A stretch of 64,000 nt of DNA, taken from the sequence record NC_024125.2, one strand, 5' to 3'. Below the pieces are notes generated by a model. The model searched no databases, was not told the DNA's origin, and saw only the letters and a program-made list of their open reading frames with translations. Shown piece after piece: positions 4,315 through 40,117 of this stretch. Origin of the DNA: Escherichia phage vB_EcoM_112. The first letter of the stretch is position 1, and every line of letters starts with the position of its first letter. Made by a program: the position numbers and the translations under genes.

Positions 4315-4650
4315 TTATTCTTCGTCTAGCTCGTCGATAAAGACGTTGATGGCCTCGATAACGGCATCATTGATAGCTAATAAAATAAAATCATCGTCAG
4401 TACCTTTAGAAGATTCTAAAGCATTGATATATGCTTGGTTGGCGAGTTCCCAAGCCTTTTTAAAATAAGGAGCTTCATCATCAGGACAAATATCCCGCAC
4501 GCCTTCAAAGATACGTTTGGCATAATCTAACACCCATTGTACAGGCATGTTTTGAGAGCGTTCGTTAAACTCTTTAAATTCCTTAGATTCAAAAAGCTCT
4601 TCAGGATAATAATTTCGATTACAAAAAGCTTTACTAAAGTTACGTTTCAT
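4315..4650 (-). CDS. hypothetical protein
   Basis: 111 aa ORF, acidic C-terminus. Confidence 0.55.
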   Translation of the reverse strand: MKRNFSKAFCNRNYYPEELFESKEFKEFNERSQNMPVQWVLDYAKRIFEGVRDICPDDEAPYFKKAWELANQAYINALESSKGTDDDFILLAINDAVIEAINVFIDELDEE

Positions 4651-4705
4651 AATGTTCTCCTCAAATTATAGGCTCATAATATCTCAATCATGAGCCTATG
4701 TAAAC

Positions 4706-4981
4706 TTATTTCATATTATTGAAATATTCTTCTGCGATTTCGTCGTTATCATGGTAAACTTTAGAAGACAGTTTAACATAACTTTCAGCAGTGAACATGT
4801 TAATCACAACCTTTACAGTATACCACTGACCGTCTTCATTGCCCATTACCGCATAAGTTTCAAACATCGGATGATCAGGACCGATAACTTTAATATCATT
4901 CACTGTACGACCGAAATCTTCTGAAACACATTTCATAAAGAAGTTGAACAGTTCGCCGTAATTATCCATTTCGTTCTCCAA
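4706..4981 (-). CDS. hypothetical protein
   Basis: 91 aa ORF. Confidence 0.55.
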   Translation of the reverse strand: MENEMDNYGELFNFFMKCVSEDFGRTVNDIKVIGPDHPMFETYAVMGNEDGQWYTVKVVINMFTAESYVKLSSKVYHDNDEIAEEYFNNMK

Positions 4982-5173
4982 GTTGTTTTCTGTATCAGTA
5001 GTTGATAGTTGTATAGTACCATGGAAGAACAGGGATGTAAACAGTTTTGTGAAAAAATTTTAAAAAATTTTGGGGAATTCTAGGGCAGGGAGGGGCAATT
5101 AAAAGATAGGATAATATATTATAAAGGATAGAAACTAAATGATGTCTAGAGAGGCCCGGAAAGGCCTAGATAC

Positions 5174-5204
5174 CAAAAAGCCCCAACCTTTTGGTCGGGG
5201 CTAA
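5174..5204 (-). terminator. GC hairpin with U-tract on minus strand; left copy of a 31-bp direct repeat
   Basis: aaaaagccccaaccttttggtcggggctaag; reads GCCCCGACC-AAAA-GGTTGGGGC-TTTTT on minus strand, directly after stop of 5210..5683. Confidence 0.65.
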
Positions 5205-5209
5205 GAATG

Positions 5210-5683
5210 TTATTTGATTTGTTTAGCAGACCAAATGCGATCTTTAATAATTTTTTGGATGTCTTCAACATACTCAAGAGAGTGAGCATGTGGGTTATCT
5301 TTGAAACTATAAGCACGAGCTAACTTTTGACCTTCAGTTTTGATTACTAAAAGCTCTTTAAGGATAGCTTCATATTTGGAGATAATTCCTTTAACAATAT
5401 TTTTTTCTTGTGTAGCTTTAGGATCTGCTTTAGGAGCAGGTTTACCTGAAGCCTTTGCAAAAGCAGCGCCAGTAGCAACTAAACTTTTCCAGGCCATACT
5501 AACAGCATTCCCCGTAAATCCTTCTGCTTTCATGTCGCGAGCAAATTGGAATCGCGATTCGTCAGAAGCATCTTTATAAGAATATTTACCCGCTGCAATG
5601 GCTGCTTTTGCGACAGCTTGAATTTCGGTGCTAGATGCTTCATTTAACACCGCTTCATTTAAAAATTGAGTATATGATTTCAT
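5210..5683 (-). CDS. CTS-bearing internal-protein-like protein (157 aa)
   Basis: ATG at 5683 preceded by AGGAAATAAG; N-terminus MKSYTQFLNEA resembles the capsid targeting sequence; the 231-aa track ORF 5210..5905 runs across promoter and terminator and is rejected. Confidence 0.7.
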   Translation of the reverse strand: MKSYTQFLNEAVLNEASSTEIQAVAKAAIAAGKYSYKDASDESRFQFARDMKAEGFTGNAVSMAWKSLVATGAAFAKASGKPAPKADPKATQEKNIVKGIISKYEAILKELLVIKTEGQKLARAYSFKDNPHAHSLEYVEDIQKIIKDRIWSAKQIK

Positions 5684-5721
5684 CTTATTTCCTGTTTTAA
5701 TTTGTAGATTTAATATACTTA

Positions 5722-5729
5722 TATTTATA
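5722..5729 (-). promoter_or_regulatory. T4 late-promoter motif TATAAATA (minus strand)
   Basis: plus-strand tatttata about 40 nt upstream of the ATG at 5683. Confidence 0.6.
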
Positions 5730-5731
5730 CT

Positions 5732-5762
5732 AAAAAGCCCCAACCTTTCGGTCGGGGCTAAG
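5732..5762 (-). terminator. GC hairpin with U-tract; right copy of the 31-bp direct repeat
   Basis: aaaaagccccaacctttcggtcggggctaag; 30/31 identical to 5174..5204, single difference in the loop. Confidence 0.65.
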
Positions 5763-6074
5763 CCTTGCGGCAACCTTGTCGGGGTTCCACCTGCTAAGGC
5801 AAGTGTTTGTACGAAACGCCGGGATTCGAACCCGGTTATCAAGCAGTTGACGCTACTCAATATTTTAAAAGGCCATATCTCGACCATATCCGAACGTTCC
5901 GTCAAAAACGCTACTCGGCTTACGGCAAAGATATTTCCTCGAATCGATAATTCGGTGCGCCGTTTCTGCTGTGATGTAAGGGGATATTAACAAATCGTAA
6001 AGATTTATTAAGACCAGTCCTTACTCAGGGAACATCAGTCCGACGACTTACCGGTAGCGACCCGGTTTCTTGTC
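5763..6074 (-). ncRNA. candidate stable small RNAs (T4 rnaC/rnaD-like region)
   Basis: 312 bp with no ORF between tRNA-Arg and a terminator; minus strand has tRNA-like T-arm CCGGG-TTCGAAT-CCCGG near 5815..5835; T4 encodes two stable RNAs next to tRNA-Arg. Confidence 0.4.
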
Positions 6075-6151
<77 letters not shown>

Positions 6152-6155
6152 TAAT

Positions 6156-6821
6156 TTAAAATTTCATTTTTCGACCTTTAAACCATCCTTCTGGAATTGG
6201 GTCAGTTTTCTTAATACGTTTAGAAACTTTTTCATCTAATGAATGAATCCACATCATACCGAATTGGGAATTCTTTTCACCTTTCTGGTGATTATTTTTG
6301 GCGTGAGATTCTTTCATTTTATTAATAGTTTCAGGAGTATGGGTCTTACCCAAGAAAGATTTAGTATTTAAAAATTTCTCTCTATACTTAGGATTATCCC
6401 AAAGCTGTTTAAACCTTTCTGAACCCATTTTACGATATTTTTCTTTAAGGTCTGGGTCGTTCTCAAATCTGGTTTTAAAAGCGGCAGCTCCTTTTAAGGA
6501 AGCTTCTTTCTTTTTATCCAAATATTCTTTAGTGTTTAAATGGTCCCAACCACCTTCACCACCTAATTTCAAATTATAAACATCAGGGCGCTTTAAAAAC
6601 TCTTCAGTCACAATATTCTTTTCTAACTCAAACATAGAGGTTTTATCGTCAAAGAACTCTAATATTTCTTTAGAAAAATTTTCTATACCATACTTATCTT
6701 GGGCTCTTTTTAATAATTTACCAGAACCCATATATCCATCATCTAAATTTTCGGTAGAATGAGCGCCTATATAGATTTTATTATTAATTTTATTTGTTAT
6801 TTTATAAATGTAATGGAACAT
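6156..6821 (-). CDS. segB: GIY-YIG homing endonuclease
   Basis: 221 aa; N-terminal GIY-YIG motif (HYIYKITNKINNKIYIGAH); lies inside the tRNA cluster as T4 segB does. Confidence 0.85.
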   Translation of the reverse strand: MFHYIYKITNKINNKIYIGAHSTENLDDGYMGSGKLLKRAQDKYGIENFSKEILEFFDDKTSMFELEKNIVTEEFLKRPDVYNLKLGGEGGWDHLNTKEYLDKKKEASLKGAAAFKTRFENDPDLKEKYRKMGSERFKQLWDNPKYREKFLNTKSFLGKTHTPETINKMKESHAKNNHQKGEKNSQFGMMWIHSLDEKVSKRIKKTDPIPEGWFKGRKMKF

Positions 6822-6862
6822 AAATATCTCCTATTTCTAAGAGTATTTATGTTCCCAAAATA

Positions 6863-8206: not shown

Positions 8207-8392
8207 CTATTCACCTTTAGAAATTTTATCCATAACAATAGCGATTAAACCAATTAAAAATGCTACTACAAGTGAAAACACATTTTCTGCTGTAGTCAAT
8301 AATCCACATATAAATCCAACAAACATTGAAAAACTAAAAGCGGAAGCAGAAATTGCAATAGCAACATTTCGAATTAATTCACAACGTTTCAT
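8207..8392 (-). CDS. hypothetical small membrane protein (61 aa)
   Basis: Almost entirely hydrophobic (AIAISASAFSFSMFVGFICGLL...VVAFLIGLIAIV); first gene after promoter element at 8412..8450. Confidence 0.5.
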   Translation of the reverse strand: MKRCELIRNVAIAISASAFSFSMFVGFICGLLTTAENVFSLVVAFLIGLIAIVMDKISKGE

Positions 8393-8411
8393 TTTATTCT
8401 CCTCAGTAGTA

Positions 8412-8450
8412 GATAGGGTAATAGTATCACTACCCTATCTAAAAGTAAAC
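8412..8450 (-). promoter_or_regulatory. early-type promoter with inverted repeat (promoter/stem-loop element), copy 1
   Basis: Minus strand: GTTTAC (-35), about 18 nt, TACTAT (-10); perfect inverted repeat gatagggta-atagtatcac-taccctatc on the spacer and -10. Confidence 0.55.
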
Positions 8451-8684
8451 TTATTTTTTACGAAAAATTGATTTATATTTATCAGCCCATTTCTCGATGA
8501 CTTTTTCTGGTCCATAGATAACAAAATAATCACCAAACTCTTCACCACCGAGTTGACCGAAATTATCTAATGCATCACGAAGAACTCCATGAGGCATTTC
8601 GCCCATTTTATCTTTCTTGCCAATGTAAATAAACTCAACTTTTACATCAGCAGCTTCAGCAATAAATTCTTGATACATTTTCAT
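8451..8684 (-). CDS. CTS-bearing internal-protein-like protein (77 aa)
   Basis: ATG at 8684 preceded by GGAG; N-terminus MKMYQEFIAEA; track ORF extends to 8702 through a non-ATG codon. Confidence 0.65.
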   Translation of the reverse strand: MKMYQEFIAEAADVKVEFIYIGKKDKMGEMPHGVLRDALDNFGQLGGEEFGDYFVIYGPEKVIEKWADKYKSIFRKK

Positions 8685-8711
8685 TTTATTCTCCAATTTC
8701 ACATTTGTTTT

Positions 8712-8750
8712 GATAGGGTAATAGTATCACTACTAAAACCCCGTGTAAAC
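8712..8750 (-). promoter_or_regulatory. early-type promoter with partial stem-loop, copy 2
   Basis: gatagggtaatagtatcactac...gtaaac; minus-strand -35 GTTTAC and -10 TACTAT retained, right stem arm degenerate. Confidence 0.5.
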
Positions 8751-8762
8751 AACTTTGTGAAA

Positions 8763-9020
8763 TTATTTTAAATCTTCTAATCGTTTCTTCATCTTAGAAC
8801 CGTTCTTAGCGATTTCTCCTGCATCAGAGCATAATGCTAAAAGTGCTTTAACTTTAGTTTGGTCTCCTTTAAAAGACGAAGGATCGACTGCAGCAGCAAG
8901 TTCTTTAATACGAGAGAAAAGACGCTCAGCTTCAGCTAAAGCCATTCCAAGCTTTACTTCCATACCGTGGGAAGATTCAGTGATAGTAGTTTTTGTAGCA
9001 AACTCTTTGAAAGTTTTCAT
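8763..9020 (-). CDS. internal-protein-like protein with CTS-like N-terminus (85 aa)
   Basis: N-terminus MKTFKEFATKTTITE; RBS AGGAAAA; own upstream promoter element. Confidence 0.6.
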   Translation of the reverse strand: MKTFKEFATKTTITESSHGMEVKLGMALAEAERLFSRIKELAAAVDPSSFKGDQTKVKALLALCSDAGEIAKNGSKMKKRLEDLK

Positions 9021-9041
9021 TTTATTTTCCTAATTAATTTT

Positions 9042-9080
9042 GATGAGGTAATAGTATCACTACCTCATCAGCATGTAAAC
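9042..9080 (-). promoter_or_regulatory. early-type promoter with inverted repeat, copy 3
   Basis: gatgaggta-atagtatcac-tacctcatc: stem retained by paired changes relative to copy 1 (GG to AG and CC to CT); -35 GTTTAC at 9075..9080. Confidence 0.55.
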
Positions 9081-9092
9081 AACTTTATGAAA

Positions 9093-11201: not shown

Positions 11202-11876
11202 TTAATTTATTAGACTTCTTAAACGAGCAGAAGTCATAAATGGAAATTTTTCTAAAGTTGGCTTTCGCCAATATCTCGGATGACAAGTTGATTTAAAATC
11301 AAGAACAATTTTCTTTGCTTCATCAATAGTGTTAACTCCAAAGTTATCTAACATTATTTTCTTTTCTTTTTCCCACCGTTTATTAGCTAAAGCAGATTGA
11401 AGCTTTTTGTTTTTAAATGTGTCATTTTTTCTAGAATGAGTTGTTCCTTGTGTCGGACTCCATCCTCTTCCTAAAATAAATCCCTCAGGAATTATATCTC
11501 CATCATGCAATTTTATACATCTTTTACCATTATTATAATATTTTCGTCCAGTTTGTGTATTTGAAATATTATTTGCATGTTTTCTTTTTAACCAACCATA
11601 AACTTTATTATTTCTCCTAACATATTTAGTTGAAACCGTCATTTTTATGGCTGCATAAGATAATTTTAAAGAATTTGGGTGTATTTTTACTAATAGCTGA
11701 TGTGCAACATAATGCTCTTCTGGAGTTAAATCAACCAAGTTAGAAGCACCATTACTACCGCCTAAACATTTCGGAATAATATGATGTCTTTCTTTATATC
11801 CAGTAAGGGCTCTATTGCGAGCCCTATCAATTAGTGAATTATAAATTTTTTCATAATTCATCGTACATTGCTCCAA
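11202..11876 (-). CDS. HNH homing endonuclease (free-standing, inserted between genes 2 and 3)
   Basis: HNH core [30 protein letters not shown]; basic C-terminal half; start overlaps 3' end of gene 2 (alternative ATG at 11861). Confidence 0.8.
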
Positions 11877-22397: not shown

Positions 22398-22432
22398 GGG
22401 AGCCCATAGGCTCCCTTTTTTCTTTATAAATA
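22398..22432 (+). promoter_or_regulatory. terminator hairpin plus late promoter TATAAATA upstream of gene 9
   Basis: gggagcccataggctccc then T6 (22398..22421); TATAAATA at 22425..22432. Confidence 0.6.
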
Positions 22433-38214: not shown

Positions 38215-38639
38215 TGCTTCTGATCCCTGAAACTCATGAATTAGTTCTCGAGAATGTCGAAGCACTTATTCCTGAAGCACAGGGTCGCTTTGACGAATTG
38301 TCTTCTGCTTTAAATAAAGACGATATAAATACAATTGTCGAGAATATGCTTGATGATGAAACTGATTTAGCGGTTGCATTAGCTTCTATTAATGAAAACA
38401 TGCCGTTAAATGAATTCATTGTTAAGCACGTTTCAGCTCGTGGTGAAATTACTCGCACTAAAGACCGCAAAACGCGTGAACGAAATGCATTTCAAACCAC
38501 TGGGCTGTCTAAAGCAAAACGTAGACAAATTGCTCGTAAAGCTACCAAAACGAAGATTGCCAATCCAGCAGGTCAATCTCGTGCTCAGCGTAAGCGTAAA
38601 AAAGCTCTTAAACGCCGTAAAGCATTAGGATTAAGCTAA
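38214..38639 (+). CDS. 68: prohead core protein gp68
   Basis: 141 aa, basic C-terminus. Confidence 0.8.
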
Positions 38640-39277
38640 TGAATGAACCCCAATTACTAATTGAAACTTGGGGTCAACCTGGCGAAATTATTGATGGCGT
38701 ACCAATGCTTGAATCTCATGATGGAAAAGACTTAGGTTTAAAACCGGGTTTATACATCGAAGGAATATTCATGCAAGCGGAAGTCGTCAATAGAAATAAA
38801 CGTCTTTATCCAAAACGTATATTAGAAAAAGCGGTAAAAGACTATATTAATGAGCAAGTTTTAACTAAACAAGCTCTCGGAGAATTAAATCATCCTCCAC
38901 GCGCTAATGTTGACCCGATGCAAGCCGCTATCATTATAGAAGATATGTGGTGGAAAGGAAATGACGTATACGGACGAGCTCGTGTTATTGAAGGTGACCA
39001 TGGTCCTGGAGATAAATTAGCAGCTAATATTCGTGCCGGATGGATTCCAGGAGTTTCTTCTCGTGGATTAGGTTCATTGACTGACACAAATAAAGGTTAT
39101 CGTATCGTAAACGAAGGATTCAAATTAACTGTAGGTGTTGATGCAGTATGGGGTCCAAGTGCTCCAGATGCATGGGTAACTCCTAAGGAAATTACCGAAT
39201 CACAGACGGCGGAAGCCGATACAAGTGCCGATGACGCCTATATGGCTCTCGCAGAGGCCATGAAAAAAGCGTTATAA
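38639..39277 (+). CDS. 21: prohead core protease gp21
   Basis: 212 aa. Confidence 0.9.
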   Translation: MNEPQLLIETWGQPGEIIDGVPMLESHDGKDLGLKPGLYIEGIFMQAEVVNRNKRLYPKRILEKAVKDYINEQVLTKQALGELNHPPRANVDPMQAAIIIEDMWWKGNDVYGRARVIEGDHGPGDKLAANIRAGWIPGVSSRGLGSLTDTNKGYRIVNEGFKLTVGVDAVWGPSAPDAWVTPKEITESQTAEADTSADDAYMALAEAMKKAL

Positions 39278-39307: not shown

Positions 39308-40117
39308 ATGCTTAAAGAACAACTGATTGCCGAAGCGCAGAAAATTGATGCTTCCGTTGCTCTTGATAGTATTTTCGAATCAGTTAATATTTCTCCGGAA
39401 GCAAAAGAAACTTTCGGCACTGTATTCGAAGCTACCGTCAAGCAGCACGCCGTTAAATTAGCTGAATCTCATATCGCTAAAATTGCTGAAAAAGCAGAAG
39501 AAGAAGTAGAAAAAAATAAAGAAGAAGCCGAAGAAAAAGCTGAGAAGAAAATCGCTGAGCAAGCTTCTAAATTCATTGACCATCTTGCGAAAGAATGGCT
39601 CGCTGAAAATAAATTAGCAGTTGATAAAGGTATTAAAGCCGAACTGTTTGAATCCATGCTTGGTGGATTAAAAGAGCTCTTTGTTGAACACAACGTTGTT
39701 GTTCCAGAAGAATCAGTTGATGTTGTAGCTGAAATGGAAGAAGAGCTGCAAGAACATAAAGAAGAATCAGCTCGTCTGTTCGAAGAACTCAATAAGCGTG
39801 ACGCATATATCAATTATGTGCAGCGTGAAGTGGCATTGAGCGAAAGTACTAAAGATCTGACTGAGTCTCAAAAAGAAAAAGTCTCTGCTCTGGTCGAAGG
39901 TATGGATTATTCAGATGCATTCTCAAGTAAATTGAGTGCAATCGTAGAAATGGTGAAGAAATCTAATAAAGATGAAAGCACTATTACTGAGAGTATAAAT
40001 ACTCCTGATACTGAAGCAGCCGGACTGAATTTCGTCACTGAAGCTGTAGAAGATAAAGCTGCACAAGGTGCAGAAGATATTGTAAGTGTATATGCGAAAG
40101 TCGCATCTCGTTTCTAA
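39308..40117 (+). CDS. 22: prohead scaffold protein gp22
   Basis: 269 aa, highly charged coiled-coil. Confidence 0.85.
   Translation: MLKEQLIAEAQKIDASVALDSIFESVNISPEAKETFGTVFEATVKQHAVKLAESHIAKIAEKAEEEVEKNKEEAEEKAEKKIAEQASKFIDHLAKEWLAENKLAVDKGIKAELFESMLGGLKELFVEHNVVVPEESVDVVAEMEEELQEHKEESARLFEELNKRDAYINYVQREVALSESTKDLTESQKEKVSALVEGMDYSDAFSSKLSAIVEMVKKSNKDESTITESINTPDTEAAGLNFVTEAVEDKAAQGAEDIVSVYAKVASRF

Follow-up and report, generated by a model that had tools for sequence, protein, structure and literature searches.

The internal proteins of bacteriophage T4 are the classic case of phage proteins that are delivered together with the DNA. In IPIII, targeting depends on residues 4 and 7 of the N-terminal leader and processing on residues 8 and 10 (PMC9026906, reporting Mullaney & Black 1996), the protein is active in the cytoplasm without its targeting sequence (PMC9391042), and in 2025 Ip1, Ip2 and Ip3 of T4 were each shown to inhibit a different GmrSD type IV enzyme (PMC12373910). 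Since this result holds for all three T4 proteins, each further leader-bearing open reading frame (ORF) becomes a candidate inhibitor. Here we describe one such ORF, encoding 157 amino acids on the minus strand at 5210..5683 of a 64,000-nucleotide stretch of the Escherichia phage vB_EcoM_112 genome (NC_024125.2; this whole stretch is referred to as the window). We consider it likely, the mechanism proposed below included, that it is an accessory Ip-type gene at a third Ip locus, which lies between the tRNA / stable-RNA cluster and e.8 and is empty in T4. In kind the system is already known, that of a T-even internal protein in a recombining cassette, and the protein itself is uncharacterised. 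Like T4 IPI, IPII and IPIII, it has a leader of about ten residues with an aromatic residue at position 4, Phe at position 7 and an L/I-x-E site at positions 8–10, and is small, non-essential and variably present; like IPII and IPIII it is basic, and it is found in a phage genome that also encodes gp21 and gp22. It differs from the T4 proteins in its dissimilar mature region, for which an all-helical two-domain fold without a structural match is predicted, and in its locus between the tRNA cluster and e.8, those of the T4 genes being the ipI and ipII-ipIII loci.

Two further systems invite comparison. That hypervariable loci of T-even phages contain varying sets of leader-bearing ORFs has been established since Repoila et al. 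1994 (cited in PMC12373910 and PMC3012670). The present locus is like these polymorphic ip cassettes in that ORFs unrelated or highly diverged from one another have only the leader in common, that their number and identity vary, and that conserved non-coding flanks are able to serve as recombination sites, but it differs from them in being empty in T4 and in having, as its flanking repeat, a terminator hairpin that is joined to a late-promoter motif. The 1994 study (Repoila et al., EMBO J 13:4181) reportedly dealt with the two loci at which T4 has ip genes, and with ten ORFs. The present protein belongs to the family PHROG 2280. The other system is the promoter-early stem-loop (PeSL) module of RB49/phi1 and other T4-like phages, in which a sigma-70-like early promoter stands beside a stem-loop (PMC2839356, PMC4122927).

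The gene, its leader and its putative expression signals

The coding sequence (5210..5683, minus strand, stop codon included) is translated into a protein that begins with MKSYTQFLNEAVLNE; both the ORF and its MKSYTQFLNEA start agree with the original prediction made for this stretch. A longer frame with a TTG start, 5210..5905, was also called; because it crosses a terminator hairpin and the rnaC region, the extension is regarded as mechanical. The exact 157-residue sequence is public as e112_137 of phage vB_EcoM_112, annotated as a hypothetical protein. Other carriers of the gene include RB32 and PP01, and a member of the protein cluster is encoded by phage Bas42.

The leader comprises codons 1–15 (5639..5683, minus strand) and reads MKSYTQFLNE/AVLNE/A, where slashes follow two L-N-E sites (residues 8–10 and 13–15) that fit the L/I-x-E specificity of the gp21 prohead protease. 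Its residues Y4, F7, L8 and E10 occupy the same four positions that are needed in T4 IPIII, and Y4 and F7 are common to MKSYTQFLNE and the T4 IPII/IPIII leader MKTYQEFIAE. The pattern M..[YF].[EQ]F[LIVM].E has only three matches in the six-frame translation of the window, and all three are ORF starts (761, 5683 and 8684). This is in keeping with what had been predicted, namely an N-terminal pattern common to these three ORFs and of the T4 capsid-targeting type ending in L/I-x-E, although a fourth leader-bearing ORF had been omitted: that at 8763–9020, which starts with MKTFKEFATKTTITE and is of the T4 IPI type (MKTFKEFTSTTTPVSTITE). E15 is invariant across an eight-sequence alignment of the family, in which relatives without the doubled L-N-E retain a single site followed by A/Q-S, and several cleavage sites per propeptide are known in related phages (PMC5694885). 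In the structure model described below residues 4–15 are disordered, with predicted local distance difference test (pLDDT) values below 50. The leader is also retained in family members from other genera that are otherwise only 20–30% identical, which argues for selection on the leader itself. Both partners of T4-type internal proteins are encoded in the window, the gp21 prohead protease at 38639–39277 (plus strand; Pfam Peptidase_S77, E 1.5e-111) and the gp22 scaffolding core protein at 39308–40117 (plus strand; Pfam T4_CASP, E 1.7e-89), and so is gp23.

Upstream of the ATG the predicted signals of a late gene are found in close order. A Shine-Dalgarno sequence, AGGAAA, lies at 5688..5693, 4 nt before the ATG as read from the sequence, and an exact copy of the T4 late-promoter core, TATAAATA, occupies 5722..5729, which places it 38 nt upstream of the ATG and 6 nt past the stem of the upstream terminator (both minus strand). 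Each is identical in eight of eight Tequatrovirus copies of the cassette examined, the late core at the same offset. The window contains 24 occurrences of TATAAATA where 10.3 are expected, a count reached in none of 100 shuffles, and a hairpin followed directly by TATAAATA also stands ahead of the family members in JS98, PG7, KpV477 and phage 55. The late-promoter motif and the good ribosome-binding site (RBS) announced by the original prediction are thus present, and its description of a self-contained unit holds, with motif, RBS, leader-bearing ORF and terminator all lying within the bounds of a duplicated hairpin.

The duplicated hairpins and the states of the locus

The gene is enclosed by two copies of a 36-nt direct repeat, both acting on the minus strand. 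The upstream copy (5727..5762, stem 5736–5759) is an intrinsic terminator that ends the tRNA / rnaD / rnaC unit and is the counterpart of the single hairpin of T4; the downstream copy (5170..5205, stem 5179–5202) is the terminator of the cassette, 4 nt past the stop codon. The copies are identical at 34 of 36 positions with a spacing of 557, and the 30-nt repeat pattern occurs twice in 64 kb where no occurrence is expected. Within them, the 31-nt hairpins match at 30 of 31 positions, the sole mismatch falling in the loop, exactly as predicted; in register they span 5175–5205 and 5732–5762, so that only the first interval, given earlier as 5174..5204, has to be moved by one base. Each copy has a 10-bp stem with seven GC pairs, a 4-nt loop and a T-run, and the folding energies are -19.5 kcal/mol (z -4.1) for the downstream and -20.3 kcal/mol (z -3.5) for the upstream copy. 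In RB33, JEP6, SH-2 and F13076 the downstream hairpin carries stem-preserving changes (GA to AG, and C to T giving G-U) with ten of ten pairs kept, and substitutions that spare all ten stem pairs are as expected of working terminators. Because the likeness of 34 in 36 nt includes the flanks beyond the stem, the two are copies by descent and not independent terminators. Besides bounding the module, both hairpins are intrinsic terminators of the ordinary kind.

At this position T4 has no protein gene, as had been foreseen, but one hairpin (6832–6861 of the T4 locus sequence, directly after the rnaC trailer) with nothing between. From the rnaC trailer to e.8 the distance is 239 nt in T4 versus 795 nt in the window, with the same flanks on both sides. 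What the window has in addition to T4 is therefore a 557-bp unit (5206..5762, minus strand) in which one extra copy of the hairpin repeat is combined with the late-promoter motif, the RBS and the coding sequence. The sequence that follows the downstream hairpin, GGTATCTAGGCC, is the same as that following the single hairpin of T4.

Twelve related loci were read, and the states given here are those directly after the rnaC terminator. With the 157-residue protein designated variant A, and two further leader-bearing products of this site designated B and C, the locus is empty in T4, and by megablast span it looks likewise empty in RB9 and JE01; it holds A only in the window, RB33 and JEP6, B only in RB14 and, as a frameshifted copy, in RB69, A followed by B in fPS-90, SH-2, ime09, OE5505 and F13076, and C in Mosigvirus phage 55. 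All junctions fall at the end of the T-run, where GCTTTTT is followed by GGTATCTAGGCC (T4-type), AGTATAAATA (A) or AGTTTGAATC (B). A megablast search with window positions 4650–6200 returned 786 phage records, 384 of which cover 80% or more of the query. Among records sampled at even spacing from these 786, similarity breaks at query positions 516–526 and 1067–1080, which correspond to 5165–5175 and 5716–5729 of the window and thus to the two hairpin copies; about half of the sample carries A, about a quarter of those also carry B, and some 5% are empty like T4. The gene is thus variably present among close relatives, and besides its absence from T4 it is frameshifted or truncated in OE5505, SfPhi01 and others, as befits a non-essential gene. 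Both family copies of OE5505 (842–1404 and 1530–1964 in locus coordinates) and the B copy of RB69 (857–1419) are split or truncated by frameshifts, which is consistent with frequent decay of an accessory locus.

In Tequatrovirus, Mosigvirus, Dhakavirus and Karamvirus, members of the same family occupy the interval from the tRNA cluster to e.8, the Dhakavirus JS98 member being orf135 (MKTYNEFLNESVLNEAG) and the Karamvirus PG7 member gp146 (MLNFKEFITESEYDMITEAG), and the member of Jiaodavirus KpV477 (MKFKEFLAEASSDV) has the same neighbourhood downstream of the tRNAs. In JS98, PG7 and KpV477, TATAAATA comes immediately after a GC hairpin with a T-run and leads on to an RBS and the leader-bearing ORF, and in JS98 and PG7 another terminator-like hairpin stands behind the ORF; the hairpin sequences themselves differ between the genera. 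Such conservation across genera suggests that the site was ancestrally occupied by this gene. One hairpin followed by GGTATC, as is found in T4, would remain after the direct repeats had recombined, and T4 is read as a deletion: the gene is probably ancestral, and T4 would have lost it by recombination between the repeats. The original prediction had raised the question whether the hairpin pair marks the boundaries of an insertion. The boundaries are borne out by the similarity breaks, which fall on the hairpins, whereas the direction is probably the reverse; insertion into a T4-like ancestor was rejected as the likelier course on account of the synteny conserved in other genera.

The module has much in common with PeSL units, in that a terminator stem-loop unit lies on both sides of an accessory ORF, the end points of insertions and deletions lie in these units, and recombination between them would excise the ORF. 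Unlike in PeSL, it is the late core TATAAATA that adjoins the stem-loop. A scan for sigma-70 promoters found no site at the junction of hairpin and TATAAATA, the nearest minus-strand match being the e.8 promoter about 140 nt downstream. With a late-promoter core in the place of a sigma-70 early promoter, the module is not a PeSL, although it resembles one in form and in an apparent shuffling role. Homologous recombination between the 30–36-nt repeats would add, swap or delete modules and so give rise to the empty, A, B, A+B and C states. The locus is in this respect a clean natural example of the gain and loss of an accessory gene via recombination between duplicated terminators.

Several side observations concern these other genomes. 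In JS98 the unit of hairpin and TATAAATA occurs twice in tandem, the second copy preceding the family member and the first preceding orf136 (877–1431 of the locus), which encodes 184 residues with a hydrophobic, membrane-like N-terminus and no leader of the capsid-targeting type; leader-bearing genes are therefore not the only ones that this module accompanies. The KpV477 member (1495–2030 of the locus) has an in-frame stop codon between TAKP and AAKK, and the orthologue in Klebsiella phage KP01 (P0010) is intact at 177 residues. An ORF of 114–116 residues (MKGNVYLVVHDL..., PHROG 3355), also without a leader of the capsid-targeting type, lies just downstream of tRNA-Arg and ahead of the rnaD-like sequence in JEP6 (1720–2070 in locus coordinates), SH-2 (2410–2760), RB69 (1849–2193) and phage 55 (2145–2489). 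Neither the window nor T4 has this ORF, which constitutes a second, independent indel in the region.

The protein family and the possible role of the mature protein

Variant A matches the PHROG 2280 profile over its full length (residues 1–157 on profile positions 1–172 of 178, E 4.2e-60), and B and C are likewise full-length matches, with E values of 2e-53 and 2e-58. B comprises 187 residues, starts with MKTYAEFLTEAAKLP and has its own terminator, TCCCTATCTAAATGATAGGGCTTTTT. C comprises 208 residues and starts with MYTFNEFLAETEVITEAG; in Mosigvirus phage 55 its gene has TATAAATA directly after the hairpin and a hairpin copy behind it. Profile-profile alignment of the A family with C by hhalign gave a probability of 79% (E 1.6e-5, 126 columns), and the broad family aligned with B at 59% (E 9e-5), in the 77 columns at the C-terminal end. 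No separate profile can be built for the B family, as its members vary too little. The possibility that B is an unrelated cassette, suggested by BLASTP and by hhalign with the narrow profile, which saw only the leader, was dropped after the PHROG and broad-profile results. So was the idea that the relatives in Yersinia and Klebsiella phages share the N-domain but end in an unrelated C-domain, because a wider alignment shows a common TPDLY / ...DRI... C-terminal pattern, of which variant A has a shortened version.

The numbers of phage records with a tblastn match are 510 for A, 165 for B and 144 for C, at one place per record, and every annotated row among the matches listed is given as 'hypothetical protein'. 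The PHROG 2280 entry carries no annotation and gives the function as unknown; it records neither a connection with internal proteins nor the conserved locus or the module of promoter and terminator. That the family has been overlooked is attributed to the absence of the gene from the model phage T4. Exhaustive hidden Markov model searching of 1.84 billion representative proteins gave 13 matches, every source-traceable one of them from a T4-like phage, and hence no cellular homologue that could lend a function. In Pfam the best match, with E 0.12, is below the cut-off, and NCBIfam returned nothing meaningful. Of the homology sought for the whole protein and for its mature part, the searches thus gave a family and no functional lead. 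In the literature on the RB32 ORF, on the virion proteomes of carrier phages and on further named Ips, no paper mentioning the protein was found.

If cut at E15, the mature form would comprise 142 residues with a computed mass of 15.5 kDa, a pI of 9.6, and 24 Lys and Arg residues versus 16 Asp and Glu. The predicted structure is all-helical, with two domains: a three-helix N-domain (residues 18–71) and a long helical hairpin (88–154), connected by a linker containing PAPKADPKA. Among close relatives the N-domain is 65–73% identical and the C-domain 85–95%, so that the N-domain diverges faster. Codons 94–96 (E-K-N), at the boundary between the linker and the C-domain, include seven consecutive A on the minus strand (window 5400–5406). 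Three independent truncated database copies, SfPhi01 P0006, P0014 (of a Mosigvirus-like subtype) and P0008, leave the frame at or beside this run, after ...AQEK. It seems to be a frameshift hot spot, the products of which would consist of the N-domain only, and the loss of frame could be due to sequencing error, real inactivation or slippage.

From these elements the following course of events may be proposed. The terminator at 5736–5759 would halt transcripts from the tRNA and rnaC genes, so that transcription of the gene would depend on its own TATAAATA, used by the late RNA polymerase in its gp55/gp33-modified form; what is observed is the motifs, their activity being inferred. Its leader, MKSYTQFLNE, may bind the gp22 core, as suggested by Y4, F7, L8 and E10 and by the conservation of the leader, so that the protein is built into the prohead, where gp21 would cut after E10 and/or E15 and leave the helical two-domain product of about 142 residues among the packaged DNA. 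That it is such a packaged and processed internal protein is, from the sequence evidence, probable. It would then be injected with the DNA and act before phage gene expression. By analogy with Ip1–3, its likeliest role would be the inhibition of a host nuclease that attacks modified T-even DNA; we hold an anti-defence function to be quite conceivable, at slightly under an even chance, and a target specifically of the GmrSD type to be less probable than that. A broader version, which appears doubtful, would make this an ancestral third Ip locus of the Tevenvirinae, with fast-diverging PHROG 2280 alleles whose N-domain is under diversifying pressure and which are injected to block a defence other than the GmrSD enzymes inhibited by Ip1–3, the alleles being exchanged by means of a module of terminator hairpin and late promoter that would be the late counterpart of PeSL.

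Several results weigh against the view of the gene as an Ip-type effector in a distinctive cassette. The structure model, built from the eight-sequence alignment, is of moderate confidence (mean pLDDT 75, predicted template modelling score 0.45). In line with the original prediction, BLASTP found no similarity of the mature part to the other leader-bearing proteins of the window, nor to T4 IPI, IPII or IPIII (E of at least 10 throughout, this being the level of IPIII, with no match at all for IPI and IPII); likeness of the mature form to Ip1–3 was found neither in sequence nor in fold. In sequence searches of the PDB, single-protein and profile queries alike gave nothing (E > 0.3), and Foldseek reached a best E of 2.6 against the PDB and returned family members only from a viral library. 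No published virion proteomics covering the 157-residue protein was found. BLASTP of A against B gave nothing, which leaves B at best a very diverged paralogue, and the A-family profile aligned with B by hhalign over the ten-residue leader only; B is probably such a paralogue, its homology to A being given by the PHROG profile and a weak hhalign score. A terminator directly before TATAAATA also occurs near 22425, 41750 and 59503 of the window, at other late genes, so that the arrangement by itself is not special but ordinary T4 design. The ORFs ending at 8684 and 9020 are preceded by sigma-70-type early-promoter blocks instead of TATAAATA, and a late promoter is therefore no general mark of Ip genes; the cassette differs from these two ipI-locus ORFs in having an exact late motif behind a terminator. 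Finally, an internal L-K-E (residues 108–110) in the long C-terminal helix is a possible extra gp21 site, and a cut there could fragment the protein like a core protein, leaving no effector.

This last point leads to the suggestion that the protein is made late, enters the prohead core by its leader and is then degraded by gp21 like gp22, gp67 and gp68, as a transient accessory of the scaffold. The three L/I-x-E sites, with L-K-E 108–110 among them, and a late-type promoter motif like those of head genes would agree with this. Yet the gene is non-essential and highly polymorphic, unlike components of the core scaffold, sites buried in folded helices often escape cutting, and the doubled site lies in a disordered N-terminus, as expected of a propeptide, for which multiple sites have precedent (PMC5694885); we regard such a fate as very improbable. 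Least probable of all is a leader resemblance devoid of function, in a protein that acts only within the infected cell late in infection and is flanked by hairpins that are simply two terminators. The matching segment is indeed only about ten residues long and deviates from the T4 leaders at Q6 (E in T4) and T5 (Q in T4), but in 128 kb of six-frame translation the pattern is confined to three ORF starts, relatives otherwise 20–30% identical retain it at the N-terminus, and the two hairpins, alike even in flanks beyond the stem, are copies by descent.

A packaged internal protein with a purely structural or physical task, such as charge neutralisation, DNA condensation or ejection, and no specific host target, is what used to be assumed for IPII and IPIII, themselves basic. 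We think this unlikely here, if less so than the two preceding alternatives. Such a task would suit a small, helical mature protein that is basic, has a linker rich in Pro, Lys and Ala, and shows no fold match to an enzyme or known inhibitor. Set against this are the finding that the basic T4 proteins Ip2 and Ip3 proved to be specific GmrSD inhibitors (PMC12373910), the dispensability of the gene, which T4 lacks and several genomes carry in frameshifted form, and the quick divergence of the N-domain together with the allele-like variants A, B and C, which fit a host-specific arms race better. Read as an injected internal protein with a host target, the gene could reveal a new pair of defence and counter-defence and could matter for predicting the host range of therapeutic T-even phages; its value is practical, that of a common, probably injected protein which T4 lacks.

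Further features of the window

The window covers the e / tRNA / ipI segment of a Tequatrovirus (T-even) genome, with the gene order read on the minus strand. An internal-protein-type ORF at 288–761 (PHROG 3155, 'internal virion protein') is followed by lysozyme e at 856–1350, nudE and e.2 to e.8, the last at 4706–4981. After the ORF at 5210–5683 come the stable RNAs rnaC and rnaD, tRNA-Arg at 6075–6151, segB at 6156–6821 together with seven tRNAs, the two leader-bearing ORFs of the ipI locus at 8451–8684 and 8763–9020, and then 57B, 57A, gene 1 and gene 3, all on the minus strand. ARAGORN reports a 94-nt 'tRNA-Lys (ttt)' at 5809–5902 (minus strand), within the part that aligns with T4 rnaC (species 1 RNA); neither rnaC nor rnaD is represented by a family in Rfam, and the tRNA model has no match at 5809–5902. 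Repeated blocks of the form ATTTCA(C/T)AAAGTTGTTTACA-N17-GATACTATTACC at 8392–8450, 8703–8762 and 9021–9092 (minus strand) stand ahead of the two leader-bearing ORFs of the ipI locus and of the next ORF, none of which has TATAAATA in front of it; these are promoter blocks of the sigma-70 / T4 early type and resemble a PeSL. Between gene 3 and gene 2, an ORF of 224 residues at 11202–11876 (minus strand) contains an HNH-type motif including EEHYVAH and is probably a free-standing homing endonuclease.

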